Of a stretch of DNA of 64,000 nt, positions 7,867 through 30,013 are shown piece after piece. Location: contig JAZDJN010000087.1 of the NCBI GenBank assembly GCA_043803945.1, positions 1 through 64,000 on the forward strand, given 5' to 3'. Position 1 is the stretch's first letter, and each line of letters starts with the position of its first letter. Under the pieces are notes generated by a model. It was not told the DNA's origin. It ran no database searches and worked only from the letters and a program-made list of their open reading frames with translations. The DNA is from a bacterium. Lineage in GTDB: Bacteria; Bacteroidota; Ignavibacteria; UBA10030. Made by a program: the position numbers and the translations under genes.

Positions 7867-8211
7867 CTACAGCTTGGTCAGCGCGTCATTTTCTGTATCA
7901 TAGATCTCGAGATAATCGACCAGCCCGATGATGTCGAAGATCTTCTTGAAGTGATTCGAAAGTCCAGTAACACCGATCTTCTGTTTCTGCTTCTGTCCAT
8001 CCGATACCATGGCGATGATAATAGCAATACCGGCGCTGTTGATATAATCGGATTGATTGAACTTGAGCAGAATCTTCTTGGCGCTCTCTTTTGTCACCTT
8101 CTGGTATGCATCAAGGATTGGGCCTTCAGCAATGCTGGTGACGTCTCCTTTGATTTCCAGAATTGAGACTCCCTGTTTTTGGGAGATGGTTACGATTGGT
8201 TTTTGTTCCAT
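7867..8211 (-). CDS. STAS-domain anti-anti-sigma factor (RsbV/SpoIIAA-like)
   Basis: 114 aa; phospho-acceptor motif YINSAGI; KIFDIIGL; RBS AAGGAG. Confidence 0.9.
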   Translation of the reverse strand: MEQKPIVTISQKQGVSILEIKGDVTSIAEGPILDAYQKVTKESAKKILLKFNQSDYINSAGIAIIIAMVSDGQKQKQKIGVTGLSNHFKKIFDIIGLVDYLEIYDTENDALTKL

Positions 8212-8339: not shown

Positions 8340-8759
8340 TTATGTACGATGTAAATAAATGACCATGCTGGTCGTATTTCCTTCCTTCGTCGAAGAAACT
8401 TCAAGCGAATCGACCAGGTTTTTGATGAGAAAAATTCCCCAGCCCCGCGATGGCACATTTCCTTCCATCCTGGATTTGATATCAGGCTTCTGATCGTGTA
8501 TTTCGAACTGCTCTCCTTTGTCATAAATATCCACCTGCAACCTATCAGCAGCTACAGTGAGTGTGACGAGGAGTTTCTCGGCTTTTCGTTTCTTGCTGGC
8601 GTGTTCGATTGCGTTGATGCACGCTTCTGCCAAGGCAGTCTTCAAATCCTCCACCCGATCTTCTGAGAATCCCATCATCCGAGCAACAGCGGCAGCAGAT
8701 TCCATCGCTATCCGTTCGTACCCGAGATCGTTAGGTATATGTAATTCTATTTTTTTCAT
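8340..8759 (-). CDS. RsbW/SpoIIAB-like anti-sigma factor Ser kinase (HATPase_c_2)
   Basis: ALAEACINAIEHA (N box), DKG (G1), RGWGIFLIKNLVD (G2); RBS AAGGAG. Confidence 0.9.
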   Translation of the reverse strand: MKKIELHIPNDLGYERIAMESAAAVARMMGFSEDRVEDLKTALAEACINAIEHASKKRKAEKLLVTLTVAADRLQVDIYDKGEQFEIHDQKPDIKSRMEGNVPSRGWGIFLIKNLVDSLEVSSTKEGNTTSMVIYLHRT

Positions 8760-8857: not shown

Positions 8858-11806
8858 TTATAAGACCTTCACAACCACAACTGTCATATCGTCATGTGGT
8901 TTGGTCGAACCGACAAACTTCTCTACATCTGACAGCATTGCTTCCAATATTTCTTTTGCTGAACCGTTCGCTAGGTTCTGTATCTTTTGCTCCAGCCGTT
9001 CAAATCCATACAACTCCTTCTTTTCATTCATTGCTTCTACTATTCCATCCGTATAGAAGACCAGCAGATCATCCGGCTGAAGTTGAATCTTCATCTCGCT
9101 GTATTCTACCTGCTCTTTTACTCCTAATGGATACCGATTTCCATCTACTTTTAAAAAAGATGTTGTATTACCACGCTTGAGTATTGGTTGCGTCTGTCCG
9201 GCATTGGAGAGCGTCAACATCTTCTTATCGAGGTCAAGAACAGCGATGGAGAGAGCGGTGAAGGTATTCTTTGTCGTCTTCAGATACATCGGTGTGTTGA
9301 TGTTAGTGAGAATCTCTTTGGGAGATTTATTATTTCCAATTTCCCGATAGATCATTCCGCTTGTCATTACGGCAGTGATTGCTGCTTTCATGGCGTGGCC
9401 CGAGACATCGGCGATGGCAATGCCGAATTTTGTTTTTTCTTCATTCATCCAGAGATAGTCGAAGTAGTCGCCGCCCACTTCACTTGCGGGTATGCAGCGG
9501 CCTGAAATGTCGAATCCTTCAATCACTGGATCAGAGACCGGCATTAAACCCATTTGCATGTCGTGAGCAGCACGAAGCTCTTCAAGAAGACGCAGCTTCT
9601 CGGCCTCCTCTATGGAACGCCGACGCTCTTCTGCGACGCGACGATCGTCAGATATTCTCAGCACAGGAAACACAAGCATTGATAACAAAGTTGCCACGAT
9701 TGGCTCAGTAAGACTGAGATCATATGCCCATTCGTATGCAAGGATGTATCCTGTAAGAAAGATGATGAAAAACAAGAGTGCAGAAATTGGAAATGCTACA
9801 CGATTTGGATATTTCATGAAGATAAGGGCACAGATGACAATTACCAGAAAGATACTGAACGGAATCCATCCATTCAGGGGTATTATAAACGCATTATTCA
9901 GAATTCCTTTCATTATAAAATAATACTGGTCAAGACTATAGCGTGCATAGTATTGGTAACCCCAGGAAGCTTCTCCCTTATTGATATCTTGAATGGGTTC
10001 CGGATTTTGCCATTCTATGAATACAATTTTGGGTTGATACATTAAGCTTGAATTACGATAATAATTAGCTTCCAACTTGTCATACAGCAATATTTCATGA
10101 TTTACATGATAATTAATTGGTGCTAAGCCCTCACCATTTACTGGAATCCGAATATTAGAGACTGTTACATGGTTATCTTCATATCGAGGATGATAAAATG
10201 TTGTATCGTTGTTAATCCTAGCAAGGGAAGCAAATGCAATGTCGACCTTCGGTTCACCTGTCACTGTATGCCTGTATCCATAAGGACGATAGTAGCTTAC
10301 GTGGGTATCTTCACTCACCTGCAATGTGTTGGCATACCATGGGATATTATAATAATCTAGAACGGGGTGATCGATCCAAGGATCATCCGATCGCTTTTTC
10401 GGTTCCACAGAGAAAAGGACCGATCGATATCTGTTAAGTTTTTTCAGAAGGTTTATACCTATAGTATCTTCGAAATGCGGTGATCGATGATCAAATGCTA
10501 TGACAACTGCCCTTACTCCCTGCGCTTCAAACCATGGCACAAGTGTATCGCACACCGTTAGATATTGTTTCAAAGAATAACCTTCCAGCCTAACATTGTG
10601 GGTGAGTATCATACCAAATGATTTGCTCCAGATACTTTCTCTATCCGTCGGAAACCAGAATTTGATACTGCGTTCGCGTGAAAATAACGGTTCAAGTATG
10701 GAAGACTCACGCAGTAACGTAACAGATATCCATAGAATGGCAGCAAAAACACTATATCGTGTGAACCGTGATCTTAACAGTCGCTGTGTTTTGTTCCACA
10801 ATGGATATCTTTGAGCATACTGGGTCGCCGCCTGTATTATTTTAAATTCAATTTGTAACACTGTATAGGTCATCACAAGCAGCAGCCAAAAAATGAAACT
10901 CCCAAATTGAAACTGCCATAGTTGAATGGAAGTAATTAACAATCCTGATCGATAGTAGTTTGTTCCAGCCAGAGTAAGGAAGTTTAAATTGCGGGCGAGA
11001 AAACAGAGGAAAGCGATCAGTGTGACATACCAGAGAGTATTAAAGATTTTTCTTGATAATGATCCTTTGAACCTTCCCAAAAAGAAATATATGAGGAACA
11101 AGCCCAGAGCAATCGAAGGAAATAAATATTGAACTATGACAATGCTATCACGGAGTTTGACCAGATCCAATAAATATTTTATCCATAACCCTGCGAAGAG
11201 AAAAAGCAGGAAAGACTTTCTTAAATTACTACGCCATCGTTTTGAACGGGCCATTCTCAGAATAATCTTTCTGAGGTCCGGCATCTGCCAAAAGCAAATA
11301 ACCCATAAGCATAAAATGAGAATAGCCGGTACTGAATACCATTCTACGATGTTGAAATATTGACGTCGTATTGGAAAATAATAAGAGGCAACAACAAGAA
11401 GGAGAGAATACTCCAATATTGAGGTTACCACCATTCTTGTTGATCTTCGATCTTTAAATAAAGGAATCTCTAAAGAAGGTATAAGAGAAACTAGTAGCGG
11501 TGACACCATGATTGCAAAATGCCATACATGCAGTTGCACTGCCAGGAAACAAAGTAATACGAGTGCAAATGCCATAACAGGGGGAGCTTTAAGCTTACCG
11601 TGTGAAATATAGATGATGAGAAATCCTATATGTGCGAGAAGTAGTGCAGCACCGAAGAGCAGATTCACCAAGCCTCGATAGCCAGTCGCAGCCCAGATAA
11701 GCCATATCAGAAAGAGTAATGCTGAAGCAAGGCTTATTCTACGATAGAGAAGTAATTCGGCATTCTGTTTTTCATCTAAATATTCGATTCGTTCTATTTT
11801 ATTCAT
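8858..11806 (-). CDS. Membrane sensor PP2C/SpoIIE phosphatase (about 10 N-terminal TMs, CHASE2-like extracytoplasmic domain, 3 TMs, PP2C); type C copy
   Basis: VGGDYFD, IADVSGH, YTDGIVEA, HDDMTVV catalytic motifs; RBS AGGAGG. Confidence 0.9.
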   Translation of the reverse strand: MNKIERIEYLDEKQNAELLLYRRISLASALLFLIWLIWAATGYRGLVNLLFGAALLLAHIGFLIIYISHGKLKAPPVMAFALVLLCFLAVQLHVWHFAIMVSPLLVSLIPSLEIPLFKDRRSTRMVVTSILEYSLLLVVASYYFPIRRQYFNIVEWYSVPAILILCLWVICFWQMPDLRKIILRMARSKRWRSNLRKSFLLFLFAGLWIKYLLDLVKLRDSIVIVQYLFPSIALGLFLIYFFLGRFKGSLSRKIFNTLWYVTLIAFLCFLARNLNFLTLAGTNYYRSGLLITSIQLWQFQFGSFIFWLLLVMTYTVLQIEFKIIQAATQYAQRYPLWNKTQRLLRSRFTRYSVFAAILWISVTLLRESSILEPLFSRERSIKFWFPTDRESIWSKSFGMILTHNVRLEGYSLKQYLTVCDTLVPWFEAQGVRAVVIAFDHRSPHFEDTIGINLLKKLNRYRSVLFSVEPKKRSDDPWIDHPVLDYYNIPWYANTLQVSEDTHVSYYRPYGYRHTVTGEPKVDIAFASLARINNDTTFYHPRYEDNHVTVSNIRIPVNGEGLAPINYHVNHEILLYDKLEANYYRNSSLMYQPKIVFIEWQNPEPIQDINKGEASWGYQYYARYSLDQYYFIMKGILNNAFIIPLNGWIPFSIFLVIVICALIFMKYPNRVAFPISALLFFIIFLTGYILAYEWAYDLSLTEPIVATLLSMLVFPVLRISDDRRVAEERRRSIEEAEKLRLLEELRAAHDMQMGLMPVSDPVIEGFDISGRCIPASEVGGDYFDYLWMNEEKTKFGIAIADVSGHAMKAAITAVMTSGMIYREIGNNKSPKEILTNINTPMYLKTTKNTFTALSIAVLDLDKKMLTLSNAGQTQPILKRGNTTSFLKVDGNRYPLGVKEQVEYSEMKIQLQPDDLLVFYTDGIVEAMNEKKELYGFERLEQKIQNLANGSAKEILEAMLSDVEKFVGSTKPHDDMTVVVVKVL

Positions 11807-12107: not shown

Positions 12108-14231
12108 TTACTGAACCCTCACGACGACTACCGTCATATCATCATGCTGCTTGGCAGTTCCTGCAAATCGATTCGCTTCCGCGATCATCGCTTCACTTAT
12201 CTCTTTCGCACTCATTGTTTGTGGGAGATTCTTCACGACCTCTTCCATCTTCTCAAATCCCCAAAACTCATCTTTGTTATTCTTCGCCTCAATAATGCCA
12301 TCCGTAAATAATACCAGCACATCGCCCGGATGCAACTGACATGATACTTCATTGTATGCCACCTCTTCCTGCACTCCCAAGGGCAATCTGGGACCTTCCA
12401 CCTTAATGTACTCTATCACCCCGTCCCGGCGAAGTAATGGTCTCATCTGTCCGGCATTCGAGAATGTGAGGTTCTTCGTCTTGAGATCAATAACTGCAAA
12501 TGACAATGCCGTGAACACATTACGGTCGGTTTTGAGATACATAGGTCGGTTGATTTTGCGAAGGATTGTTCGAGGACTTTCATTGGAGCTGATTTCATTA
12601 TAGACCAGGCCGCTGGTCATCACGGCTGTGATGGCAGCTTTCATTGCTTTGCCGGAAACATCAACAACAGCTATACCAAGCTTATTCTTTTCTTCATCGA
12701 GCCAGACATAGTCGTAGTAATCGCCGCCGACTTCATTAGCCGGATAGCAGACTCCGGAGATATCGTAACCAGGAATTACCGGATCTGCCTTTGGCATAAG
12801 TCCCATCTGCATATCGTGCGCGGCACGCAATTCAGCTTTGAGATAAGCACGATCTTCAATGAGCCGAAAACGTTCTAACACCAGTTCGTACGGTAAATAG
12901 AACAGGAGTGACGCAATAAATGAGGCGCCGATCGGATAAGAATTAACAAGGATACTTCCATAGACGAAGAGAGCAATACAACACAATCCTGATATTACCA
13001 GAATTAAGAAGGATCCACCGAATGCAGCCCAAGGTGAGAATCGCTTGAATAACTCGTATGCGATAATTATGAACACGAACGCGATAATTGGATAGAGGCG
13101 AGAGTGTGCTTCGCTCAGGAATTCCTGATCGAGAATATTCTGAATAATGGTGGCATAAGCAGTGGCATATTTATAATCTGTAGAATTGTTAAATAGGACA
13201 ATAACAAATTTACCATTGAGCATTTGAATGGATTTGATTGTATCAAGCGGTACATACCTTGGACCATTAGGATGAGTTGTTACAAATACATAATTGATGA
13301 TTTGTGATTTATCTTCATCATACTTAGCAATCGACCATCTTCGATGAGTCTTGTTACTTGAGGTTTGTTCATCGCTATTGCTTAACTCGTACTGTAGATT
13401 ATAAGATAGTTGTTCACTATACCATGGTTCACCTTGATTATACCAAATAGTTGAAAATGGACTCATCCAAGTCTTGGAAGAATAATAGTTGATATTCATC
13501 GATTGCCAATACTTTTTATCATTCACTGGAATATTTCCGATCAAGGAATCAGCATTATTCATACCAAGTTGAATCATCTTTAATCCGAAGTCTTCAGGCT
13601 GAATGGGTAACGCTGTCAATTCTGGATATTCACTTTTCGTTGAATGATAATACATTGGCAATAGTTCAGAATTGTATCCTTTCAAATACCTTGAGGTTAG
13701 TGTTGTCTGTGCTCGAAACCTTCTATTCCACAGAGAGTCAGTCTGATGTTCAGTCCGATTATCTATGCGATAGCGATCATGATAATATACGAGTGCAGAA
13801 TTTCTGACAACGCTTTGGATTTTAAGGTCTGAATTAATACCGTAATCATATAATGGGCTAAGTATTCCTATCACAAGTGGTTTCGAGCGATCAAGCATAT
13901 CAAGTATACTAATGATTTTATTTTCGACTGGTTTTCCTAGTATTTCGACAATAACCACTTGTGGATTTTTTGGTCGATGATCACCGCGCAGTGTTATTAG
14001 CCACTTGAACCAGTATTGTTGAATCGTGTTCTCGAGTCCTGCTGGGAATGCAAGGAAAAGAATGAATATCATTCCAGTCGTGAGTGCATAATAGCTGCTT
14101 CGGTTCAGTGATGGAGATCTCGTCCTACTTTTCAATTGAATGAGAAGCAGAACGATTCCTGTTGTTATCATTGCGATAATAAGAAGAACATAAATCCCCA
14201 TTTCTGTGTCGATTAAATATTTCCCTAACAT
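12108..14231 (-). CDS. Membrane sensor PP2C/SpoIIE phosphatase, CHASE2-like; type A copy
   Basis: 2 TMs, extracytoplasmic domain (PQVVIVEI...ATIIQNILD), 3 TMs, PP2C motifs VGGDYYD/VDVSGK/FTDG/DDMT. Confidence 0.9.
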   Translation of the reverse strand: MLGKYLIDTEMGIYVLLIIAMITTGIVLLLIQLKSRTRSPSLNRSSYYALTTGMIFILFLAFPAGLENTIQQYWFKWLITLRGDHRPKNPQVVIVEILGKPVENKIISILDMLDRSKPLVIGILSPLYDYGINSDLKIQSVVRNSALVYYHDRYRIDNRTEHQTDSLWNRRFRAQTTLTSRYLKGYNSELLPMYYHSTKSEYPELTALPIQPEDFGLKMIQLGMNNADSLIGNIPVNDKKYWQSMNINYYSSKTWMSPFSTIWYNQGEPWYSEQLSYNLQYELSNSDEQTSSNKTHRRWSIAKYDEDKSQIINYVFVTTHPNGPRYVPLDTIKSIQMLNGKFVIVLFNNSTDYKYATAYATIIQNILDQEFLSEAHSRLYPIIAFVFIIIAYELFKRFSPWAAFGGSFLILVISGLCCIALFVYGSILVNSYPIGASFIASLLFYLPYELVLERFRLIEDRAYLKAELRAAHDMQMGLMPKADPVIPGYDISGVCYPANEVGGDYYDYVWLDEEKNKLGIAVVDVSGKAMKAAITAVMTSGLVYNEISSNESPRTILRKINRPMYLKTDRNVFTALSFAVIDLKTKNLTFSNAGQMRPLLRRDGVIEYIKVEGPRLPLGVQEEVAYNEVSCQLHPGDVLVLFTDGIIEAKNNKDEFWGFEKMEEVVKNLPQTMSAKEISEAMIAEANRFAGTAKQHDDMTVVVVRVQ

Positions 14232-14314
14232 GACTTTGAATCCTCATCTTAAGTTAAATATAACAGTTACATTTCAAGTTCGACAAATTGATAAGCACTG
14301 TTCTCTCGCTCTTT

Positions 14315-14344
14315 AGCATTACGAAATAGAGTTTCGTAACGAGA
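14315..14344. repeat. REP-like hairpin (third copy of GCATTACGAAAxxGAGxxTCGTAACGAG)
   Basis: Same palindrome as at ~11893 and ~16932. Confidence 0.75.
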
Positions 14345-14364
14345 GCAAGTAATGAGTCAATTCT

Positions 14365-16725
14365 TCAATTTACTTTCACCACCACTACAGTCATATCATC
14401 ATGCTGGTGAGCCGAACCAGCAAACTGTGTCACTTCCGCTAAGATTGCATCAACTATCTGCTTAGCTGTCATGGATAAATCAAGTTTCCGAGCACTTGCC
14501 TCCATCCTCTCAAATCCCCAGAATTCTCGCTTCTCATTCTTCGCTTCCACAATACCGTCGGTAAGGAATACAATCACATCACCAGATACTAATTTCACCG
14601 TGGTCTCTCCGTATTCCACAATCTCCTGCACTCCGAGCGGCAATCGAGGACCTTCCACCTTAATCGATTGGATTTCTGAGCCTCGCCGCAGCAACGGACT
14701 TATTTGGCCGGCGTTTGAATACGATAGAGTGTTCTCATGAATATCAATCACACCAAAGGACATAGCGGTAAACATCCGGCGGTCGGTCTTGAGATAGAGC
14801 GGCCGGTTGATGTGCATAAGAATAGTACGCGGTGAATCCTGACCGCTGATTTCCCGATAGACCATGCCGCTCGTCATCACCGCAGTGATGGCAGCCTTCA
14901 TCGCTTTTCCCGATACATCGGCTATTGCAATGCCGATTTTTGTTTTTTCGTCGTTCAGCCAGAGGTAATCGAAGTAATCCCCTCCTACTTCGTAGGCAGG
15001 GCGGCATACGCCCGAAATATCATATCCGGGTACGACTGGATCGTGTGTAGGCATCAATCCCATTTGCATATCATGAGCGGTTTTAAGCTCTTCCTGTAAT
15101 CTTTGCTTTTCAATTCTTTCTTGCATCTTCCGATCATGGGCAAGAAGGACAAAGGAAAAAGCAAAGAGACCAAGCATTGTGGCTAATATCGGAGGTAAAG
15201 GCTCAACGATGATAAAATAACTCGCGACAAGCCAATAATAGAAATACCACTGCATGAATATGAAAAGGATGATTGCGACAACACGTCGAACCGTATTAAG
15301 AAAGAGAATACACAGGAGTGTCATAGTGATTGCTGCAATGGTAATGTAAGGCGTCCACCTATCCAGCGGCCACATCTGTTGATTCTCAAGTATATTGTGG
15401 ATAATGGTCGCATAAACTCCAGTAAAATTATTAATCTTTGTAAGATACATCGCGGGAGGCTGGATGATGACAATTTTTCCACTGTAGGTGGTCCACGGTG
15501 CCTGAGAGAATTTGTCCGACAACAACACGCCCTGCTTGGTATAGGTAATTGAATCAGAGACCTCGTTGATATGTGCAAACAGCTCATCAGCATATGAGAT
15601 AAAGATCCGGGGATTAATGAAAGTACTCTGATCCTTCATCAGTCCTGTTTTGTACCCAGGCATGATAAATGCATTGCCCTGGATTGAGAGTTCAGAGTTA
15701 TCAGAATATCCCCTATACAGACGAACCGCCTGGACAGACACATCAGGCACGAGCTCTTCTGATTCGTTTTCCCAATATGAGAGAGGATAATACCTGTCCG
15801 GATAATACCATATTCTTGCTGCAGCACTGATCACGCCATACGTTATTGGAGTAGTACGTTTAACCGGGCGGTCAATTGAAAAAGGAGTAGGCAGACTTCT
15901 ATCCTTTGCAGGTATTGCAAACACAACATTGCCATGTCGTGCAATCGCTGTGATTGCTTCATCACGAAGATAATCCGTCTCTCCAATACCTTCGGGCAGT
16001 GGAACGATGATAACCTTGACCCCGGCACTGGTGAGTGTCGTCGTTATCTTTGCCATGGCTTCGAGGTAACTGGAGTGACTCAATCCCAGCGTATTGATTG
16101 AGAGCACGCGTACAATGTCACTTTCATCCCAGGATACTCTGGCCATCCGGATTCGTACCTGCATTGAATAATTCCAATCGCTTCCTCTGAAAAGCAGAGT
16201 AATGAGGAAAATGATCATACCCGTGATACTGAGCTTAAGGATTAATCCTATTGACCTGATCCTTCTCCTGTCATATCCAGGCACGTTTTCCCTCGTTTGA
16301 CGCATTCTTTCAGCAATGGTGTACAATACATAGAGCACTCCTGCCATAAGGGTATAGGAGAGAAGAAATGGATAGAGATCGAATCCCATAAAACTTATTG
16401 CGGCATACACCATCTGATTTGCTTTTGCGCCGAGGAGCAGGGAAAAGAAATAGAGGGATAGAGCTATCAATTTGAAATTTCTATCACACCAGTGGCGCTG
16501 AGCGGTTGTCAGAATGGTTCGAACGAATATTGCAATCGCACCAGCAACAACAATGCCGATCATCCACGAAACACCGAAATGAGTTAGATATTCGTACCAA
16601 TTTCGGACCGGTGAATAGCGGCCAATGATACCAGACATTGGAATATAATTGCCGGTGCCGAACCAGAGCACTCCCAGTATCGTTATGATGATAAAGAAGG
16701 ATGCCGTGTATAGAATGCGTTTCAT
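14365..16725 (-). CDS. Membrane sensor PP2C/SpoIIE phosphatase; type B copy (start moved to MKRILY)
   Basis: RBS AGGAAAGGA before ATG at 16725; full-length paralog of 19778..22159; intact PP2C motifs. Confidence 0.9.
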   Translation of the reverse strand: MKRILYTASFFIIITILGVLWFGTGNYIPMSGIIGRYSPVRNWYEYLTHFGVSWMIGIVVAGAIAIFVRTILTTAQRHWCDRNFKLIALSLYFFSLLLGAKANQMVYAAISFMGFDLYPFLLSYTLMAGVLYVLYTIAERMRQTRENVPGYDRRRIRSIGLILKLSITGMIIFLITLLFRGSDWNYSMQVRIRMARVSWDESDIVRVLSINTLGLSHSSYLEAMAKITTTLTSAGVKVIIVPLPEGIGETDYLRDEAITAIARHGNVVFAIPAKDRSLPTPFSIDRPVKRTTPITYGVISAAARIWYYPDRYYPLSYWENESEELVPDVSVQAVRLYRGYSDNSELSIQGNAFIMPGYKTGLMKDQSTFINPRIFISYADELFAHINEVSDSITYTKQGVLLSDKFSQAPWTTYSGKIVIIQPPAMYLTKINNFTGVYATIIHNILENQQMWPLDRWTPYITIAAITMTLLCILFLNTVRRVVAIILFIFMQWYFYYWLVASYFIIVEPLPPILATMLGLFAFSFVLLAHDRKMQERIEKQRLQEELKTAHDMQMGLMPTHDPVVPGYDISGVCRPAYEVGGDYFDYLWLNDEKTKIGIAIADVSGKAMKAAITAVMTSGMVYREISGQDSPRTILMHINRPLYLKTDRRMFTAMSFGVIDIHENTLSYSNAGQISPLLRRGSEIQSIKVEGPRLPLGVQEIVEYGETTVKLVSGDVIVFLTDGIVEAKNEKREFWGFERMEASARKLDLSMTAKQIVDAILAEVTQFAGSAHQHDDMTVVVVKVN

Positions 16726-16766
16726 TGTGATTTCCTTTCCTATGTTAATATCTTTTGTCCTCTGCT

Positions 16767-16823
16767 GAATGATACACCAAATCTGCTCAGGAGTTGTCTC
16801 CATATTGTAAACGTTATGTCATT
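16767..16823 (-). promoter_or_regulatory. Putative promoter with three 11-bp-phased direct repeats (OmpR/PhoB-type site) and a TATCAT -10 box
   Basis: + strand TGTCTCC (16795), TGTAAAC (16806), TGTCATT (16817); GAATGATACA box at the same spacing as in 22199..22255. Confidence 0.65.
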
Positions 16824-16928
16824 CTTTCACTTTCGCTTCGTTTCACTTCTCTACAGTAGGGCGTTGTTCTGAAAGTTCTTCTTTTAGCAGCATGAATAGA
16901 CTCTCTACTCTTTGATGCAGAGCTTTTG

Positions 16929-17091
16929 CATCAGCATTACGAAACAGAGTATCGTAACGAGAATATTCTTATTGTTAATCTCCCTCACCCTATCTTTATT
17001 TTGATCATTAGTCCCTCTCCCATTGATGGGAGAGGGATATAGGGTGAGGGCAAAAGACAATTCCTAAACCATCTCTCCTCTACCGTCTACC
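16929..17091. repeat. Intergenic direct repeat copy 2
   Basis: Near-identical to 11890..12050; both copies lie downstream of a type A phosphatase. Confidence 0.9.
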
Positions 17092-17093
17092 AC

Positions 17094-19520
17094 TCATAAG
17101 ACTTTCACCACTACGACTGTCATATCATCATGCTGCCTGGCAGTTCCCGCAAAGCGATTCGCCTCAGCTATTAATGCTTCGCTCATTTCCTTCGCACTCA
17201 TTGTCGAAGGGAGATTCTTCACTACCTCTTCCATCTTCTCAAATCCCCAGAATTCATCTTTGCTATTCTTCGCCTCAATGATGCCATCTGTGAATAGCAC
17301 CAGTACATCATCCGATTGTAGCTGACAAGAAACTTCGTTGTATTCCACTTCTGCCTGCACTCCCAGTGGTAAGCGCGGACCTTCGACCTTGATATACTCG
17401 ATCATTCCGCCCCGACGCAGCAATGGAACCATCTGGCCCGCATTTGAAAATATGAGTCCCTTCGACTTGAGATCAATCACGGCAAATGACAATGCCGTAA
17501 AGACATTCCGGTCGGTTTTGAGATACATTGGACGGTTAATCTTGCGGAGAATTGTTCTCGGGCTCTCATACGAATTGATTTCATTATACACCATACCGCT
17601 GGTCATAACTGCGGTGATGGCGGCCTTCATCGCTTTGCCAGAGACATCGACGACAGCTATGCCGAGCATATTTTTATCTTCATCGAGCCAAACATAGTCG
17701 TAGTAATCGCCGCCGACTTCGTTGGCCGGATAGCAGACTCCGGAGATATTGTATCCAGGTATCTTCGGATCTTCTTCTGGCATAAGTCCCATTTGCATAT
17801 CGTGGGCGGCTTTTAATTCAGAAGCATAGCGCAAGCGTTCTTCCAACACCCTGCGATAATTTCTAAGAACTTCATATGGCAAATAGAACATCATCGAACA
17901 AAGAATAGCAATTGCAAGATGACCTGGATTATACAAAACGTTAAACGCATAGTAGAGAATGATGATAGCTATGGCAGTGCCAAAAAGTATTACGATAGAT
18001 GCAAGAAAAGCAGTCCAATGGTTACGCTTGAGATACAGTACAAGAATTAGAAGTACTATAATGAATGCCACTAGGTAATAGATAATGGTTGAAGGTTCAT
18101 AGAGGAAATTGTTATCAATGATACTTTGAATGATGGAGGTATAGGTATATGCCAGTTGATGGTCACCGACACTCACGAGTAGAATTTTTCCTTCAACACC
18201 AGGCAGATCATTCTGATTTTTTATCCATTTTCCTTGTTCATTTTTGGTAAGCAGGCACTCGCTATTGAAATCTACTTCTCTGATACTACTCCAATCTAAT
18301 TTGTGTACTATTTGAGGGGTCGTGATAGAAGTAGGCCAGCGGTATCCAGTAGAAGAATATCGATATGTTGTGAAGAAATGTTCTAGGTCGCTGTAGATTC
18401 TTGGATTTAACAAATGATTAATGACCATTCTCTCATTCGTGCTCTCTGAATATTTTTGGAGCCATCTGACCTTATTCTGAGCAATTGAATCGAACATGGT
18501 TATGCTTTGTCTATATCTTAAATGCAGAGCATAGACTTTGATCCCAAAATCAATATTTTCAATGATACTAGTTCTAACTATTTTTAGATAGAGTGGCAGG
18601 AAGCCGGAATGATGTAAATAACTTCGCTCAAGGTAATGGCTATAACCTTCAACCAACGAGACCGCCTGAGAAATATTGCTAGTCTTGTTATCCACTCTTT
18701 CTAAATCTTGAATTGCTCTAGTATCCAGAAAATTTATTTTTGTTTTGGGGATTTTATTTTGAAATTCAAGCATATACTTCACTAATTCCTCACTGTTATA
18801 TGGCAATTCAGAACAGATACCGATTACACTCGGATGGTATTTGCTAAATATTGAGAGTAAAGTCAGAAGTTCCTTTTTATCAGGCCAATCATCTAATTGA
18901 AGATATGTTATCTGAGGGTCCTTAATACGCTTCAGGGATTTGTTCTTAAGAAGTATTTTGTATGTATTCTCATAAATGTCATCATAGATATTTCTGTAAC
19001 CATTTCTCCACGTTCGATCAGTATTCAATAATATTAGTAACGCAATTAACAGGCAGGTCGAGAAGATATAAAAAAACGTACGACCAAGATAACTTGAATA
19101 ACCCATTTGAATTTTATTCAAGACATAATAAAGAAATCCGATAGAAGCTGATATGAATGTTAGGAATACATTATTACGCAAATCATAAAATATTCTGTAC
19201 CATGCACCGTGAAAGTGATATGTGTCGATGCTGAAAACAGAATACAATACTATTCCACTAAGAATAAAATAACCAAGCAGCGAGCTATCCTCGAATGTAT
19301 TTAATCTCTCTTTTGTCGATGGTTTCTGCGATAAACGCTTTTCTATTTCCTGTAATAATGAAATTATTGCGATCGCTAATAGGAAGTAGATCGCAGTGAA
19401 AAGTAGTCTGATATTGCTGTCGGCGCCCAATCCAAATTGCAGTGCAGATAGCACCATAGCTGCAAGGTACCCAAACAATGGGATGAGCATGAAAAGAGTA
19501 ATCCATTTTTTAGTGTTCAT
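17094..19520 (-). CDS. Membrane sensor PP2C/SpoIIE phosphatase; type A copy (start moved to MNTKKW)
   Basis: RBS GGAGGG before ATG 19520; PP2C domain nearly identical to 12108..14231, sensor region AT-rich and divergent. Confidence 0.9.
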   Translation of the reverse strand: MNTKKWITLFMLIPLFGYLAAMVLSALQFGLGADSNIRLLFTAIYFLLAIAIISLLQEIEKRLSQKPSTKERLNTFEDSSLLGYFILSGIVLYSVFSIDTYHFHGAWYRIFYDLRNNVFLTFISASIGFLYYVLNKIQMGYSSYLGRTFFYIFSTCLLIALLILLNTDRTWRNGYRNIYDDIYENTYKILLKNKSLKRIKDPQITYLQLDDWPDKKELLTLLSIFSKYHPSVIGICSELPYNSEELVKYMLEFQNKIPKTKINFLDTRAIQDLERVDNKTSNISQAVSLVEGYSHYLERSYLHHSGFLPLYLKIVRTSIIENIDFGIKVYALHLRYRQSITMFDSIAQNKVRWLQKYSESTNERMVINHLLNPRIYSDLEHFFTTYRYSSTGYRWPTSITTPQIVHKLDWSSIREVDFNSECLLTKNEQGKWIKNQNDLPGVEGKILLVSVGDHQLAYTYTSIIQSIIDNNFLYEPSTIIYYLVAFIIVLLILVLYLKRNHWTAFLASIVILFGTAIAIIILYYAFNVLYNPGHLAIAILCSMMFYLPYEVLRNYRRVLEERLRYASELKAAHDMQMGLMPEEDPKIPGYNISGVCYPANEVGGDYYDYVWLDEDKNMLGIAVVDVSGKAMKAAITAVMTSGMVYNEINSYESPRTILRKINRPMYLKTDRNVFTALSFAVIDLKSKGLIFSNAGQMVPLLRRGGMIEYIKVEGPRLPLGVQAEVEYNEVSCQLQSDDVLVLFTDGIIEAKNSKDEFWGFEKMEEVVKNLPSTMSAKEMSEALIAEANRFAGTARQHDDMTVVVVKVL

Positions 19521-19702
19521 GTTAGTACCCTCCGCAATAATTATTTGCTTCAACTAATCACAATTCTTCATGTGATTTTTATTTCCATTTATTCCTTTCC
19601 CCTCGGCGAGACGCCTTCGGGCTAGTGGTTTTCATCTCTTCTTTTCCGTCTCCCTTCTCCCTTCTAACTTCTACCGCTTAGAGAACTCTCGCTACCACCA
19701 CC

Positions 19703-19765
19703 GTCACCCTTCGACTCACCTTCGACTCGGGACTCCATGCCTCGTTCAGGTTCGCTCAGGGTGAC
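19703..19765. repeat. REP-like palindrome GTCACCCTTCGAC...GCTCAGGGTGAC
   Basis: Terminal inverted GTCACCCT/AGGGTGAC with internal CTTCGACTC duplicates. Confidence 0.7.
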
Positions 19766-19777
19766 CATTATACCGTG

Positions 19778-22159
19778 TCACAGTACGCGGACAACGAAAA
19801 TGGTCATATCATCATGCTGCAGCGCTGAACCAGTATAGTGTGTTACTTCAGCAAGAAGCGCATCGACGATCTGCTTTGCTGTCATGGTTATATCTAAGCT
19901 CTTGACACTTGCCTCCATCTTCTCAAATCCCCAGAACTCTCCCTTCTCATTCTTCGCTTCCACGATACCGTCGGTTAGGAACACAATCACATCGCCAGAT
20001 TGTAATTTCATTGTGGTTTCTCCATACTCCACAATCTCCTGAACCCCGAGCGGCAATCGGGGCCCTTTAACCACGATTGTCACGATTTCGGTACCACGAC
20101 GGAGCAATGGATTTAACTGGCCTGCATTGGAATATGAGAGTGATTTTTCCTTGGTATCAATCACGCCAAAGGACATAGCGGTAAACATCCTGCGGTCAGT
20201 CTTGAGGTATAATGGCCGATTGATATGCATGAGAATGGTGCGCGGCGAATCCTGTCCGTTTATTTCCCGATACACCATACCGCTCGTCATCACCGCAGTG
20301 ATTGCAGCCTTCATCGCTTTTCCTGATACATCGGCTATTGCGATGCCAAATTTCGTCTTTTCGTCATTCAGCCAGAGATAATCGAAGTAATCCCCTCCTA
20401 CTTCATAGGCAGGGTGGCACACACCGGAGATATCAAAGCCAGGTACAACCGGATCGCTGGTTGGCATCAGTCCCATTTGCATGTCGTGGGCAGTTTGCAG
20501 CTCTTCCAGAATTCTCTTCTTCTCATTACGCTCCATCCGTTTTCTTTCATGGGCTATTATAACAAACGTAAAAGCAATAAATCCGAGCAATGTGCCAATG
20601 ATCGGTGGAGCAGGTTCCAGGAACACATCATATCGAGAAGCAATCCAGGAATAAGCATATCCCTGTCCCACTATAAGAACAATGACACCGATCATACTGA
20701 GCCATGGCTTGAGGAAAATAATCAGGCAGAGCGTCACTATCAGCATCGCAGCCGTAATCAACGGCATCCAGGAATCAACCGGTGTCGAGGAATGGCCCTG
20801 AAGGATTCCATGAATGATATTGCTGTAGGCAAGACGAAAATCTTCCACTTTTGTTATGTGTGCACCGGGATCAATAATGATGATCTTGCCCACCACAATT
20901 TTCCACAGACTGTCAGGCGGGTTACTGATTGTAGCAATTCCCTCGCCGCTCATTCCATACTGTACCAATCCGGTCGAATCATCGACACTGGCAAAGATCT
21001 GAACATAATCTCTTGTGTAGTAGAGATTCATCCGATCTTGAATCATAGCAGATTGATCTTGCCATAATCCTGTATGGAATTTGCCGAGGGTAAATGTGCG
21101 CCCTTGGATATTCATGGTCGTCGTTGCTATGTCCCCCCAATATTGCCGAACAGCCTCCACCGCCACATCTGGAATCATGGCGCCCGTAGCAAATTCCTTG
21201 TAAGAAAGAGGATAATATTTATACGATCTCCACAACCATAATTGTCCCGGAATCGCTGTATTGACTCCCCACTTCAATGGTAGGATGTTTTTTGCAGGAT
21301 GATCGATGGAGAAGCTGGGATACAAGCGCTTATCCGATGCAGGAATTGAGAATACAACATTGTTCAGTCGTACAATTTTTTCAAGAATACGGCTGTTCAT
21401 TTGTGAAGAAGAAATTCCTGCCGGTAAGGGAGCCACAACAACTTTTACTCCTGCCCTGCTGAGCTTACTACAGACGTCATACAATGCATTAAGATACATA
21501 CGGTGGCTTACTCCGACATTCGTGAGTTCGAGGCACCGAATTACCGAGCTTTTTTCTGTATTAAATCTTCCTGACAGAAGCATCATTTGAATCGAACGAT
21601 TCCAATTAGTATCAGAGATTTGGATCGTTATGAGAATGATCAAGAGTCCCATCAGGAGAAGCTTTATGGAGAGCCAGATATTTTGCTTCCGGTCAGATCC
21701 AACACGGTCAACGCTTATTCCCTTATACCGTGCTACCTCGATAATGAGATAAAAGCAATAGAGCATCGCACCGAGATAATAGAGCACGATCAATGATCCA
21801 AAAGCATCGGCAACATGAATCCGCAGGACAGTTGAGGGATTCTTAAAAACCATTTCAGCTAAGGGTAAGCTAAGGTTGTAATGAACAAAATATCCTACGA
21901 TGAGGGAAACGAGGAACAGACAGTACAAACTGAAAGTGATGTTTTTTTTGATCCATTGAGTGGAGTAATGTTTAAGTATTTTTCGCAATAGGAGTACTGC
22001 CGCTATTGAGAGTACCATACCGATAGTCCAGGAAAAGCCAAACAATAACCAATAATGGCCGACCTCCTTTGTTGCGTAGGGATCGGTAAATTCATTCCGC
22101 CATACCAGAAGGAGTGATATGAACAGAATAATGACGAAGGTGATTGTGATCCGTTTCAT
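19778..22159 (-). CDS. Membrane sensor PP2C/SpoIIE phosphatase; type B copy
   Basis: 5 TMs, extracytoplasmic domain, 3 TMs, PP2C motifs; RBS AAGGA. Confidence 0.9.
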   Translation of the reverse strand: MKRITITFVIILFISLLLVWRNEFTDPYATKEVGHYWLLFGFSWTIGMVLSIAAVLLLRKILKHYSTQWIKKNITFSLYCLFLVSLIVGYFVHYNLSLPLAEMVFKNPSTVLRIHVADAFGSLIVLYYLGAMLYCFYLIIEVARYKGISVDRVGSDRKQNIWLSIKLLLMGLLIILITIQISDTNWNRSIQMMLLSGRFNTEKSSVIRCLELTNVGVSHRMYLNALYDVCSKLSRAGVKVVVAPLPAGISSSQMNSRILEKIVRLNNVVFSIPASDKRLYPSFSIDHPAKNILPLKWGVNTAIPGQLWLWRSYKYYPLSYKEFATGAMIPDVAVEAVRQYWGDIATTTMNIQGRTFTLGKFHTGLWQDQSAMIQDRMNLYYTRDYVQIFASVDDSTGLVQYGMSGEGIATISNPPDSLWKIVVGKIIIIDPGAHITKVEDFRLAYSNIIHGILQGHSSTPVDSWMPLITAAMLIVTLCLIIFLKPWLSMIGVIVLIVGQGYAYSWIASRYDVFLEPAPPIIGTLLGFIAFTFVIIAHERKRMERNEKKRILEELQTAHDMQMGLMPTSDPVVPGFDISGVCHPAYEVGGDYFDYLWLNDEKTKFGIAIADVSGKAMKAAITAVMTSGMVYREINGQDSPRTILMHINRPLYLKTDRRMFTAMSFGVIDTKEKSLSYSNAGQLNPLLRRGTEIVTIVVKGPRLPLGVQEIVEYGETTMKLQSGDVIVFLTDGIVEAKNEKGEFWGFEKMEASVKSLDITMTAKQIVDALLAEVTHYTGSALQHDDMTIFVVRVL

Positions 22160-22198
22160 GGCTATTTCCTTTTAAGGTGAGACGATCTGTGTCTTGTA

Positions 22199-22255
22199 GA
22201 ATGATACAGTATTTGCGAGAGGAAGTTGTCAACGAATTGTAAACGTCCTGTCAAT
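22199..22255 (-). promoter_or_regulatory. Putative promoter with three 11-bp-phased direct repeats and a TATCAT -10 box
   Basis: + strand TGTCAAC (22227), TGTAAAC (22238), TGTCAAT (22249); same architecture as 16767..16823. Confidence 0.7.
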
Positions 22256-22546
22256 CTATGGTATTCATTGACAAGCGAGGACGGGTGTTTCTGAAAAGGA
22301 TAAGACGCGCAGCCAACTATCGGATGATAGCTTGTCGTTTGCATCTGATCACTCCGAATGAGGTTGGGCGGAGAGAATTAGTAGATCAGTGCTTATGTAA
22401 CGTAATGAGTCCTCTTCATCTTAGAGGAATATGTTGACCATTGTTCAAGAGTCTACTAGGTTCGTCATTGTCTACTTTTATATTTGCATTGTCATTTTGC
22501 ACTTTGCATTTTAACTTTTCAATTATTAGTCGTCCCTCATCCTTAC

Positions 22547-22891
22547 TTACAATAGCTTGAGTGCTGCATCTTCTCCCTGGAATATTGTCAGGAAGTCCGT
22601 CAGACCGATCATCTCGAATATTTTCTGGTAGTGGGTTGAAAGACCGACGACGCCGACTTTTTGAGAAACATCGCGGGCCTTGCTGACAATCATGATTACC
22701 AGAGCAATTCCTGCGCTGTTGATAAAACATTTCTCATTGAATCGCAGAAGAATTTTGGTGGAGCCTGCACTGGTTACTTCGTTGTATGCTTTGAGGAATA
22801 CCTCTTCGATCGTTGAGGATACTTCACCCGATAAGGTGATCACTCCGACGGTTCCAAGAAGTTCTGTCCTTACTGTTCCTGATGATTGCAT
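22547..22891 (-). CDS. STAS-domain anti-anti-sigma factor (second paralog)
   Basis: FINSAGI motif; KIFEMIGL; paralog of 7867..8211. Confidence 0.9.
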   Translation of the reverse strand: MQSSGTVRTELLGTVGVITLSGEVSSTIEEVFLKAYNEVTSAGSTKILLRFNEKCFINSAGIALVIMIVSKARDVSQKVGVVGLSTHYQKIFEMIGLTDFLTIFQGEDAALKLL

Positions 22892-22983
22892 ACCATCTGA
22901 ACCTTTCTTGGTACACCGGCTATTGAGCCCTGAATACCTTTCCGGTACTTACAATTCTGATACTTTACTTCTGAACAATATAC

Positions 22984-23424
22984 TCATCTCACAAATTTAT
23001 ATCCTGAACTATGCATCGTCAGGATATGCTGCGGTGCCGATGGATCTCTCTCGATTTTCTTGCGAAGGCGCAAGACATAGTTGTCGACAGAACGAGTTGT
23101 GGGATTATGATCGTACCCCCAAACGTCGCGCAGCAATTGATCGCGGGAAAGCACTTTCCCTTCATTGATGAGAAAATATTTCAAGAGTTTAAACTCACGA
23201 GCCCTGGCGGGTATTTTCTTTCCCTCCTTGAACAACTCCTGACGAATAAAGTCTACCTTAATGTCTCCGAATGTCACTTCATCAGATGACTGTTCATTAT
23301 TCTGTTGCTTGCCTAGTGTTGTGCGAACGAAGTATCGCAGAAGATCAATCTCGCTTTCGACAATCGTGGACTGTTTCTTCTTGGAATGAGGACGGGAAAA
23401 AGTATTTTTCGTTTTCGGAGGCAT
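22984..23424 (-). CDS. Receiver-less OmpR/PhoB-type winged-helix DNA-binding protein
   Basis: REFKLLKYF...VLSRDQLLRDVWGY...TRSVDNYVLRLRKKIE...GYKF (Trans_reg_C); a short basic N-terminus replaces the REC domain. Confidence 0.85.
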   Translation of the reverse strand: MPPKTKNTFSRPHSKKKQSTIVESEIDLLRYFVRTTLGKQQNNEQSSDEVTFGDIKVDFIRQELFKEGKKIPARAREFKLLKYFLINEGKVLSRDQLLRDVWGYDHNPTTRSVDNYVLRLRKKIERDPSAPQHILTMHSSGYKFVR

Positions 23425-23454
23425 GAATAAGTATTCAGATTCCGTAATTACTCA

Positions 23455-23562
23455 GCCACAGAGGCTCAGAGCACACAGAGAAAAGAGAATTCCTTAGTGT
23501 CAAAATGCATGAGTCAAATTGAATTTTACATTAAACCTCAGTGTTCTCGGTGTCTCGGTGGC
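23455..23562. repeat. Inverted 9-mer-period intergenic element
   Basis: GCCACAGAGGCTCAGAGCACACAGAG ... CTCAGTGTTCTCGGTGTCTCGGTGGC. Confidence 0.65.
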
Positions 23563-23840
23563 AATTTCTTGAAAACGCTTAGCAGTTACCAGACTTCTTA
23601 TAATCTGCATTTGCGCTACACAAGAGTGGACAGACAATAATAGCATCTTTCCACCATTGGTTCAAATGGTATTATCAGCCTCTTTGTTTCTGATGATTTA
23701 TGCCGAAGATGCGGCAATGAGAAGGGATTTGTTGAAATGAAGGAGGCGAATGTACTCTTCGACAGTGAATAATTCACCTATTTGTAGTACTTTATACCAT
23801 ACTATTAACCCCCACCAAACAACACATTGACTCAACAATT

Positions 23841-24708: not shown

Positions 24709-25383
24709 CTAATTGACAATGATGAGTGTATTTTCTGTTTCATTAACATCATCCACAGTTTTTGGAAGCACTTTACCCAGCTTCTCTCCAGCAGAGGCAA
24801 TGGTCTCACAGAAAGCATCGGTGATGGAGCTCTTCTTCAAACAAAGGATCATTTCTTTGCACAGTTGATCGATAGCGTTTTGCCCAAGCGCTTTCAATGC
24901 AGCTTCGTCTGCCCTGATACTGACCATACGCTCATAAAGTGAGATATAGATCAAGACACCAACATGCTCTTTGGTATGATGGACTCTCCCATCGAAAAAC
25001 AGTTGTTTTGATTTTGCCGTTACCTCGGCCTCCATTTCCCTCTTCGGAGTAAAGAGGAGTCCGAGCCCGCCTATGCGCGATCCAAGGAATATTCCGAATG
25101 TATATCCACCGACGAGACCGCAGACCATCAGGAAGTAATAGAATATGGGATTGGAGGACTCCCATTGAAAAGATTCTGTACGGAAATCAAGGAAGAAATA
25201 AATGATCGTCATGAATAATATTCCTAAGAGAAGACCGATGAGATCTTCTGCACGATCATAGCGCCCTGAACTTGATGCAATAGCTGGAACAATCTCTGCC
25301 GATGTCTTCTCCTCTGCTTTCGCAACTGCTGCCTCAATCTTCCGGCAATCCTCACGGGTGAGTTTTCTTGTTGTATGGATCAT
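24709..25383 (-). CDS. TPM-domain membrane protein (start moved to MIHTT)
   Basis: IEAAVAKAEEKTSAEIVP, GVLIYISLYER, DVNE motifs; RBS AAAGGA; the longer ORF call overlaps the upstream gene. Confidence 0.8.
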   Translation of the reverse strand: MIHTTRKLTREDCRKIEAAVAKAEEKTSAEIVPAIASSSGRYDRAEDLIGLLLGILFMTIIYFFLDFRTESFQWESSNPIFYYFLMVCGLVGGYTFGIFLGSRIGGLGLLFTPKREMEAEVTAKSKQLFFDGRVHHTKEHVGVLIYISLYERMVSIRADEAALKALGQNAIDQLCKEMILCLKKSSITDAFCETIASAGEKLGKVLPKTVDDVNETENTLIIVN

Positions 25384-25402
25384 ACGCCATTCCTTTCCAG
25401 TC

Positions 25403-26314
25403 TTACCAAGATCCTGTCGAACCGCCGCTGCTTGAAGATCCTCCACCGAATGAGCTCCCACCTGAAGAACTCCGACTGCCTGATGATCCAAATAATCGAT
25501 TACTTGCGTTTGGCTCATCATCATAGTACGAACCGAATCGGGTTCTTCGGTTGTACCTGTCATAACGATCATTGTAGCCATAGGAAGGTTGACTCATCAT
25601 TTCACCGAAGGCACCGAAGATAGTCGACCACATTCTCCAGGCCAATCCTTCTTTCTGCGATTGTGCATATGAGATCAATGTGAAAAAGATCAAGCCTACC
25701 ACGAGAGCAACTCCTCCTATGACGGCATAATCTTTTAAGGTCAGTGCTGTCGGATCCTGATCCTTCGCTAATCGGCTCAGTTGTTCAACACCTTCCAATA
25801 TCCCTTTTGAATAATTACCCTCTTTAAAATTCGGTATGATCGTTTCGCTCATGACTGTCCGGCTTGCAGTCTCATGGTCGGCGCCAAAACCCGCGCCTAA
25901 TTCAATACGCGCTTTTCGGTCGCCAAGAGAAACAAGGAGAAGGATTCCTTTATTGAAACTCTTCCCTCCAATCTTTGGATGGCCGATACCCCAGGAGTTA
26001 TAAAGAGTGGTGGCAAACGTTTCGATTGACATAGGGATGGTCGTGTACATTCTCATCGCTTCAATCGTGACGGTGACAAGCGGTATACTTTGCTCATTCA
26101 GAAGCTTCTGACTTACCTCCTTCACCTCTACTCGATCTCCGAATGTGATAAGGTTTGCCTTATCGATAACAAATTCCCAGTCGTTAGGCCGCTGGAGAGT
26201 GATGGTTTGACCGGGTGATTGTTGCCACGGTGATAGAAGGTTTATTGGAAGGATAAAAAGAAAGAGAATTATTTTAATTGCTCTTGAGAACAACGGAAGT
26301 AATCGATTTCCCAT
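25403..26314 (-). CDS. TPM-domain (YgcG-like) protein with Gly/Ser-rich tail
   Basis: VIDKANLI, WGIG, GILLLVSLGDRKARIELGAG, GGSSFGGGSSSSGGSTGSW; start moved to MGNRLL. Confidence 0.85.
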   Translation of the reverse strand: MGNRLLPLFSRAIKIILFLFILPINLLSPWQQSPGQTITLQRPNDWEFVIDKANLITFGDRVEVKEVSQKLLNEQSIPLVTVTIEAMRMYTTIPMSIETFATTLYNSWGIGHPKIGGKSFNKGILLLVSLGDRKARIELGAGFGADHETASRTVMSETIIPNFKEGNYSKGILEGVEQLSRLAKDQDPTALTLKDYAVIGGVALVVGLIFFTLISYAQSQKEGLAWRMWSTIFGAFGEMMSQPSYGYNDRYDRYNRRTRFGSYYDDEPNASNRLFGSSGSRSSSGGSSFGGGSSSSGGSTGSW

Positions 26315-30011: not shown

Positions 30012-30013
30012 GG

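Follow-up and report, generated by a model that had tools for sequence, protein, structure and literature searches.

Which factor reads the phased repeats that precede two phosphatase genes in an Ignavibacteria bacterium? The question arises from a 64,000-nucleotide stretch of DNA, called here the window (Bacteroidota, Ignavibacteria, UBA10030; GenBank assembly GCA_043803945.1, contig JAZDJN010000087.1, positions 1 to 64,000). In this window, two SpoIIE/PP2C phosphatase genes of the same type, B1 and B2, each follow an array of three short boxes and are each followed by a second phosphatase gene, A1 or A2. A small gene of the same cluster encodes a 146-residue protein with an OmpR/PhoB-type winged helix-turn-helix (wHTH) domain and no receiver. 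Judged from sequence, this adjacent receiver-less protein would bind the arrays head-to-tail and activate the B-A operons from an activator-dependent promoter. We give this reading a probability of about 0.7.

Phased arrays upstream of B1 and B2

Within the window, TGTM-N7-TGTM-N7-TGTM has just two matches, which begin at 16795 and 22227. The first comprises TGTCTC, TGTAAA and TGTCAT (16795/16806/16817), the second TGTCAA, TGTAAA and TGTCAA (22227/22238/22249). The original prediction, three TGT(C/A) repeats at 11-bp spacing before both type B genes, is therefore exact. The mean expected number of matches in the window is 0.06, and none of 100 shuffles gave two or more. A chance origin of the arrays is excluded. 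The promoter elements and the candidate regulator are the following.

16795..16822, minus strand: candidate B1 operator, three boxes with an 11-bp period; on the coding strand ATGACA (16822-16817), TTTACA (16811-16806) and GAGACA (16800-16795)
22227..22254, minus strand: candidate B2 operator, three boxes with an 11-bp period; on the coding strand TTGACA (22254-22249), TTTACA (22243-22238) and TTGACA (22232-22227)
16767..16776, minus strand: conserved 10-mer GAATGATACA (TGTATCATTC on the coding strand) of the B1 promoter, a TGTATC box with the -10-like TATCAT
22199..22208, minus strand: conserved 10-mer TGTATCATTC (coding strand) of the B2 promoter, a TGTATC box with the -10-like TATCAT
22984..23424, minus strand: 146-residue receiver-less OmpR/PhoB-type wHTH regulator (P0001; Pfam Trans_reg_C, E = 7.2e-26)

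On the coding strand, the arrays read TTGACA-N5-TTTACA-N5-TTGACA at B2 and ATGACA-N5-TTTACA-N5-GAGACA at B1. The distance between array and 10-mer, previously said to be equal in the two copies, is exactly 18 nt in both. Only 7 of the 18 spacer bases are identical, in line with the divergence claimed for the intervening DNA. The B1 and B2 proteins are 50% identical and A1 and A2 47%, so the duplication is old. Because the blocks have stayed intact in upstream DNA that has otherwise diverged, they are under selection and are not recent copies. The genome as a whole (5.54 Mb, 118 contigs) contains seven instances of the loose triple pattern. A motif scan for the full architecture (three phased boxes, 17-18 nt, then TGYAWC) returned B1 and B2 only.

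From the end of the proximal box it is 18 nt to TGTATC and 20 nt to TATCAT, and the box is centred near -35. At 20 nt from TATCAT, the proximal TTGACA is too distant to serve as a -35 hexamer. The sequence 17 nt away, the proper distance for a -35, is ACAACT, with two of six -35 matches, and a sigma-70 consensus scan did not call either site. By sequence geometry alone, the position of the array relative to the -10-like TATCAT fits one that abuts or replaces the -35. Direct-repeat operators of the pho-box type are recognized by at least two similar hexamers with an 11-bp period; each window promoter has three, and eight other loci described below have two to four. The predicted layout is that of OmpR/PhoB-family operators in which direct repeats replace the -35.

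Other assignments of the conserved elements were considered. A sigma-54 promoter on the strand opposite the box was rejected by eye, since TGGCAC is absent at the right distance. The Bacteroidetes-type -33/-7 promoter was not adopted, given a spacing of 22-23 nt and a poor match to TAnnTTTG. An inverted half-site in TGYAWC was weakly rejected, the position that matches the invariant A of the boxes being G in 5 of 10 promoters.

A receiver-less family of OmpR/PhoB-type regulators

The 146-residue protein matches Trans_reg_C (PF00486) over residues 68-144 with 90.5 bits, for a cut-off of 26.2. Pfam finds no Response_reg domain and nothing besides Trans_reg_C, which upholds the earlier view that a phospho-receiver is missing. 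The protein therefore lacks the receiver with a phospho-acceptor Asp that characterizes two-component response regulators. Aligned with full-length regulators, it starts within the equivalent of receiver helix alpha-5, and its open frame extends just nine codons further upstream. An AlphaFold2 model (alignment of 32 sequences) has a mean predicted local distance difference test score (pLDDT) of 77. The model consists of a disordered basic tail (residues 1-19), a helix (23-37) that corresponds to receiver helix alpha-5, a disordered linker and the wHTH domain (49-144), with pLDDT above 90 for residues 51-146. The best Foldseek matches are the DNA-binding domains of KdpE, YycF, VicR, OmpR and PhoP. 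For most of the stand-alone domains listed, the root mean square deviation is 1.3-2.5 Å over about 98 columns; it is 3.2-3.7 Å for two OmpR entries and SaeR. The predicted fold has the N-terminal beta-sheet, the three helices with the recognition helix and the C-terminal beta-hairpin wing of the OmpR/PhoB class, and together with Pfam it identifies the protein as a true member of this wHTH type.

A search of 5.8 billion proteins returned about 40 clusters of 144-160 residues that carry Trans_reg_C only and cover the regulator end to end at 47-67% identity. These short forms outrank the 226-residue regulators, which match over residues 33-146 at 49-66%. A tree was built from the C-terminal 125 residues (77 rows, retaining every third 220-232-residue protein of the search list), with five other regulators of this genome as outgroup. 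In this tree, 44 of 45 short forms group with one long form, that of locus L042, in a single clade (Shimodaira-Hasegawa-like approximate likelihood ratio test support 99, stem 0.79) that branches beside 226-residue PhoP-like response regulators. The remaining short row, P0065, falls among the regulators. Because of the end-to-end clusters and the single supported clade, the 146-residue protein is not a stray truncation.

The L042 protein has 267 residues. Its N-terminal domain matches Response_reg along its whole length, though weakly (E = 0.039, 14.6 bits for a cut-off of 30.2), and on this match is a degenerate receiver. Together with the position of the clade, this suggests that the receiver decayed and was then lost in the lineage; the family looks like a branch of PhoP-like regulators. 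A search for longer relatives gave one protein at E <= 1e-25, an ordinary 257-residue regulator. By this weak test, long forms like that of L042 look rare.

Conservation of the regulator, boxes and target genes

Loci of the family were collected from several sources. A genome-collection scan with B2 gave L042, 401 genomes of the class gave G228 and G249, and all 277 genomes of the order gave in addition G809 and G810. In a metagenome scan, 5 loci with a short form, two of them near copies, were found among 80 of 589 loci. The eight distinct loci have the following gene orders.

L085 (genome G228): regulator, boxes, SpoIIE
L093 (near copy: L095): regulator, boxes, SpoIIE
L173 (G810): regulator, boxes, SpoIIE, 304-residue protein without assigned function, RsbW, STAS
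L089: STAS, regulator, boxes, SpoIIE, SpoIIE
L042 (same sequence as G249): regulator, boxes, RsbW, STAS, SpoIIE (B-like)
L088: STAS, regulator, boxes, RsbW-like
L174 (G809): regulator, boxes, 222-residue protein without assigned function
L087: regulator, boxes, end of sequence

Two to four TTGAC(A/G) boxes with an 11-bp period start within about 100 nt after the regulator stop codon in 8/8 of these loci, and in all eight the repeats are followed, after 17-18 nt, by (T/C)G(T/C)A(A/T)C. The unit is captured by a single regular expression, with exactly one hit in each of these loci and two hits in the window. The ten promoters were compared in an anchored alignment; a MAFFT alignment, in which the window rows were shifted by one repeat, was not used. 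The first gene past the unit encodes SpoIIE in four loci, an RsbW-like protein in two and the unassigned 222-residue protein in one, and is cut off in the last; it is thus a SpoIIE phosphatase or RsbW-like kinase gene in six of the seven loci where it is visible.

The reverse test used the strict pattern TTGACR-N5-TTGACR-N17/18-TGYAWC over 401 genomes of the phylum. Four genomes matched: G228 and G249 at exactly the regulator-linked sites, and G116 and G520 at sites without the regulator within 1.5 kb. The reversed control pattern matched one genome of the 401. The window's own genome is part of the sample and cannot match, since its middle box is TTTACA.

Conservation of the motif in orthologous promoters was the test set for the original prediction, and the eight loci pass it. 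The unit of repeats and downstream box after orthologous regulator genes makes the link from regulator to operator to target well supported: by sequence conservation, the boxes are tied to the receiver-less family and to partner-switching genes. The proposal that the repeats form an OmpR/PhoB-type direct-repeat operator, with the product of 22984..23424 as best candidate binder, is borne out in the same way.

Proposed mechanism and alternatives

The 146-residue regulator is the most likely binder. It would form a head-to-tail array on the three TTGACA/TTTACA boxes, one helical turn apart, with the proximal box centred near -35 in place of a usable -35 hexamer. Its likely action would be class II activation of the B-A phosphatase operons, in the manner of PhoP and PhoB. 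We infer physical binding, the start site, and activation over repression, the last because of the poor -35 and the coding-strand orientation of the boxes. As the regulator has no receiver, its activity would be set by its own level or by the surrounding partner-switching proteins. The isolated output domain of PhoB is constitutively active, which makes a level-controlled, signal-independent activator the default alternative to control by partners.

Several observations, here and in the comparison with the canonical paralogue that follows, weigh against this mechanism. Confidence in the N-terminal helix is low (block-mean pLDDT 61 and 50, residues 21-40). The short form occurs in 5/277 genomes of the order, all of one family, and the loci compared all lie outside the window protein's own subclade (P0002-P0016). 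Locus L043, which carries a B-like gene and a second phosphatase gene as a pair, has neither regulator nor boxes. TATCAT is a weak -10, and its assignment is weak as well, as hexamers are only mildly enriched in upstream regions of this genome; hexamer enrichment upstream of 1802 long open reading frames gave no sharp promoter consensus.

The boxes might instead be read mainly, or also, by a canonical phosphorylatable OmpR-type regulator of 226 residues encoded on contig C111 of the same genome (L001, 56000-75810) together with a classical histidine kinase of 860 residues. In that case the two proteins would share sites, at which the receiver-less one would compete or act as a co-activator. 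Of the paralogues, the C111 regulator is closest to the 146-residue protein, with 46% identity across residues 33-146, and the recognition-helix region is nearly identical in short-form and canonical proteins. The neighbourhood of the C111 regulator contains seven phased TGAC-N7-TGAC pairs, in gene orientation, before neighbouring genes. Canonical and other loci contain 72 such pairs in 720 kb, many directly after the regulator gene. The same core box and 11-bp period beside the genes of the closest canonical regulators show that the box fits this branch of DNA-binding domains, a point in favour of binding by the 146-residue regulator; near-identical boxes at the paralogue make cross-regulation possible. 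The base after TTGAC[AG] is A in 4/6 window boxes and 59/96 boxes of canonical loci, as against 0/17 boxes of the other short-form loci, where it is C in 13/17. By the flanking base alone, the window boxes look canonical. A wing position follows the same division, with His in the window protein's subclade and in canonical regulators and Arg in the other short forms. This could reflect covariation of protein and DNA, or reading of B1 and B2 by the C111 regulator as well. There is also a parallel in Streptomyces, where PhoP and the receiver-less AfsR reportedly act as overlapping, competitive activators. The downstream box argues the other way. TGYAWC is found 15-20 nt downstream in none of the 61 phased chains listed (153 canonical or background loci and L001) but in 10/10 short-form promoters including the two of the window, with the first T replaced by C in two. 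Moreover, the conserved adjacency is with the short-form gene and not with the kinase-regulator pair. On balance, we regard reading by the C111 regulator as unlikely.

The C111 box pairs precede genes for a YegS/diacylglycerol-kinase-like protein, a DUF3419+PEMT protein, an ornithine/arginine decarboxylase, a GNAT protein, a metallophosphoesterase and a secreted 5'-nucleotidase. These genes form a candidate regulon, possibly for phosphate-sparing lipid remodelling.

Repression by the same receiver-less regulator, the array covering the -35 region and blocking RNA polymerase, is a variant of about the same low likelihood. The proximal box of B2 is a perfect TTGACA and the array overlaps the -35 region. 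In addition, the reverse complement of TGYAWC is GTTACA or GTTACG in three loci, which is box-like and would place a possible inverted half-site over the -10. However, with TTGACA 20 nt from TATCAT and only ACAACT (2/6) at 17 nt, the promoter looks activator-dependent. Base A4 of the boxes is invariant in 113/113 counted boxes, in part by selection of the boxes, but the matching position of TGYAWC is G in half of the ten promoters. PhoP-activated promoters of B. subtilis carry their boxes on the coding strand, as is the case here, which also counts against repression.

That no dedicated factor is involved, the boxes being stacked sigma-70 -35-like hexamers or leftovers of a tandem duplication, is very improbable. 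In its favour, TTGACA is the -35 consensus of sigma-70, and the promoters of B1 and B2 are paralogues of each other. Against it, the spacing to the -10 falls outside 16-18 nt, neither site was called in the consensus scan, and ahead of the genes of this genome TTGACA is enriched by a factor of only 1.5. The blocks are also intact beside coding regions diverged to 50% amino-acid identity, and orthologous regulator genes are followed by the unit in genomes with a G+C content of 49-57%.

Gene cluster and B-A transcription units

From 7867 to 23424, every gene of the window is on the minus strand. In order of transcription, the regulator gene is followed by these genes.

22547..22891, minus strand: STAS protein of the anti-sigma antagonist type (Pfam STAS, E = 3.7e-07; conserved NSAG serine column)
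19778..22159, minus strand: SpoIIE/PP2C phosphatase B2, 793 residues, membrane sensor N-terminus (Pfam SpoIIE, E = 2.4e-43)
17094..19520, minus strand: SpoIIE/PP2C phosphatase A2, 808 residues (Pfam SpoIIE, E = 8.9e-42)
16971..17061, minus strand: nested hairpin, located past the A2 stop codon and before the candidate B1 operator, which likely ends the B2-A2 unit (inverted repeat I1; RNA fold)
14365..16725, minus strand: SpoIIE/PP2C phosphatase B1, 786 residues from the ATG at 16725 (Pfam SpoIIE, E = 3.5e-45)
12108..14231, minus strand: SpoIIE/PP2C phosphatase A1, 707 residues (Pfam SpoIIE, E = 2.2e-45)
8858..11806, minus strand: fifth SpoIIE/PP2C phosphatase, 982 residues (Pfam)
8340..8759, minus strand: RsbW/SpoIIAB-type serine kinase, 139 residues (Pfam HATPase_c_2, E = 5.6e-28)
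7867..8211, minus strand: second STAS protein, 43% identical to the first (Pfam STAS, E = 6.2e-11)

By Pfam, a partner-switching gene set with five SpoIIE, two STAS and one HATPase_c_2 genes thus lies on one strand between 7867 and 22891. The first STAS gene starts 92 bp downstream of the regulator gene, and the gap between them (22892-22983) contains no box set. None was found upstream of A1, A2, the fifth phosphatase, RsbW or either STAS gene. The hairpin after A2 folds as RNA with -45.3 kcal/mol (z -5.35), and a decayed copy follows A1 at about 11930-12020 (z -0.45). The duplicated unit spans the boxes to the strong hairpin after A2. In the related locus L043, the B-like gene and the second phosphatase gene share 4 bp; the product of the latter matches A2 strongly only over the C-terminal 316 residues.

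The idea that each B-A pair is an operon fits the bounds of the duplicated unit, the box-free upstream regions of A1 and A2 and the overlap in L043. The earlier proposal of B-A operons under a wHTH factor therefore stands in these respects and in naming the local protein as best candidate binder. Since the C111 paralogue has near-identical boxes, the local protein need not be the sole binder.

The sequence of the hairpin element is GCCCTCACCCTAT...CCCTCTCCC/GGGAGAGGG... and its 12-mer occurs five times in the genome, three times in the region of these elements and twice on contig C101. In the 416 bp upstream of the regulator gene (23425 to 23840), two TTGAC words 14 bp apart are enclosed by an imperfect inverted repeat at about 23457-23561. 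TTTTGACAC, one of the two words, is the consensus box of the other loci, which may point to autoregulation or to a repeat element; a single box is not significant alone. Among 40 related genomes, the query used for the B-type sensor domain found no full-length orthologue, the best match being partial with 27% identity.

Some neighbouring features may be mentioned. In the window, two same-strand open reading frames with TPM domains (24709-25581 and 25403-26437) overlap by 179 bp, which may indicate a frameshift or an over-long start call. Several genes with type IX secretion C-terminal sorting domains and a PorV-like gene lie in 1384-7774 and 29001-37159, which fits an Ignavibacteria-like member of the Bacteroidota. 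In L173, a hybrid histidine kinase gene (9878-11698; PAS-HisKA-HATPase-receiver, 606 residues) is located 108 bp upstream of the receiver-less regulator gene, and a similar hybrid kinase of 636 residues is encoded in the window at 40256-42166. A 304-residue protein without a Pfam match follows a Reg_prop/Y_Y_Y SpoIIE phosphatase in both L085 (13948-14862) and L173 (4923-5837), the similarity of the two proteins being their equal length. L085 also carries a gene for a reverse transcriptase-Cas1 fusion (16312-18537, 741 residues) near the regulator locus of genome G228.

Possible link to partner switching

The original prediction had also suggested that a partner switch controls the wHTH protein, for instance through sequestration by RsbW/STAS, which would make a feedback loop. 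No sigma-70-family gene adjoins any of the genome's three small RsbW-like genes, and a STAS gene is co-operonic with the regulator in 3/9 loci. Both observations leave room for the idea. The receiver-less family might then be the transcriptional output of sigma-less partner-switching modules, with a STAS protein or an RsbW-type kinase binding the N-terminal helix or basic tail of the regulator in replacement of receiver control. Sensor PP2C phosphatases would gate an OmpR-type activator, and this activator would in turn drive the genes for phosphatase, kinase and STAS proteins, closing a feedback loop like the autoregulation of sigma-B. We propose this only tentatively, as less probable than not. 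In full-text literature searches, no publication was found that connects partner switching with a wHTH or OmpR-type protein. A term search of a review on STAS-only proteins gave no occurrence of "winged" or "DNA-binding" (PMC8256260).

In L043, the phosphatase pair is followed by RsbW, STAS and adenylate/guanylate cyclase genes (4655-11721). This arrangement is a sigma-less partner switch with the cyclase as possible output.

OmpR-type direct-repeat operators, receiver-less OmpR-type proteins (SARPs, that is Streptomyces antibiotic regulatory proteins, ToxR-like proteins, NnaR) and sigma-less partner switches are each known separately. A conserved receiver-less family of about 145 residues with its own operator before partner-switch genes was not found in full-text literature searches. 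The recurrence of gene and site beside phosphatase switch genes suggests a connection of such switches to transcription that has not been described before. Sigma-less partner-switching modules are widespread, and most lack an assigned output; a small conserved regulator of the OmpR type, its defined operator lying ahead of the module's own genes, is a concrete, testable candidate output. A response-regulator lineage would have shed its receiver and kept a conserved length, helix and regulon, and one may ask which switch took the place of phosphorylation. The operator, with two to four boxes and a fixed downstream box, is specific enough for target prediction in metagenomes.

Comparison with known systems

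The system shares with PhoP and PhoB the OmpR/PhoB wHTH fold, at least two direct repeats phased by the helical turn and an array that, by its predicted geometry, extends to the -35 region of a promoter with a poor -35. The nearest full-length relatives of the regulator are labelled PhoP-type by one source. B. subtilis PhoP recognizes repeats of TT(A/T/C)ACA and E. coli PhoB the pho box; the window boxes resemble the consensus sequences of B. subtilis PhoP and WalR. For Streptomyces PhoP, operators are described as 11-nt direct repeat units, at least two per site (PMC3479208). In contrast to PhoP and PhoB, the absence of a receiver leaves the regulator without an Asp phosphorylation switch and without receiver-mediated dimerisation, and its predicted targets are PP2C phosphatase and partner-switch genes instead of phosphate-starvation genes.

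An OmpR-type DNA-binding domain without a receiver is also found in SARPs (AfsR, ActII-ORF4, DnrI), ToxR, CadC and HilA. SARPs bind direct repeats near the -35. NnaR is a further receiver-less case (PMC12632262). Unlike these proteins, the present regulator has only 146 residues and, by Pfam, no bacterial transcriptional activation domain (BTAD), transmembrane domain or enzyme domain. A BTAD after the wHTH defines SARPs; here the protein ends two residues past the wHTH. It also differs from other receiver-less types in having kept a basic tail and one alpha-5-like helix, and in forming a separate clade beside PhoP-like regulators. As in ChxR, HP1043 and GlnR, activity would be independent of Asp phosphorylation. 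ChxR reportedly binds direct repeats. These three proteins keep a full degenerate receiver for constitutive dimerisation, whereas the present family has lost it, apart from the long form of L042.

Compared with the RsbU-RsbV-RsbW/sigma-B, SpoIIE-SpoIIAA-SpoIIAB/sigma-F and HsbR-HsbA-FlgM modules, the cluster likewise contains PP2C phosphatases, a STAS protein with the conserved serine and an RsbW-type kinase. Unlike these modules, it has no adjoining sigma factor gene, and the linked transcription factor is a wHTH protein. As in the sigma-B operon, the predicted sites of the transcription factor precede the genes of its own presumed control module.

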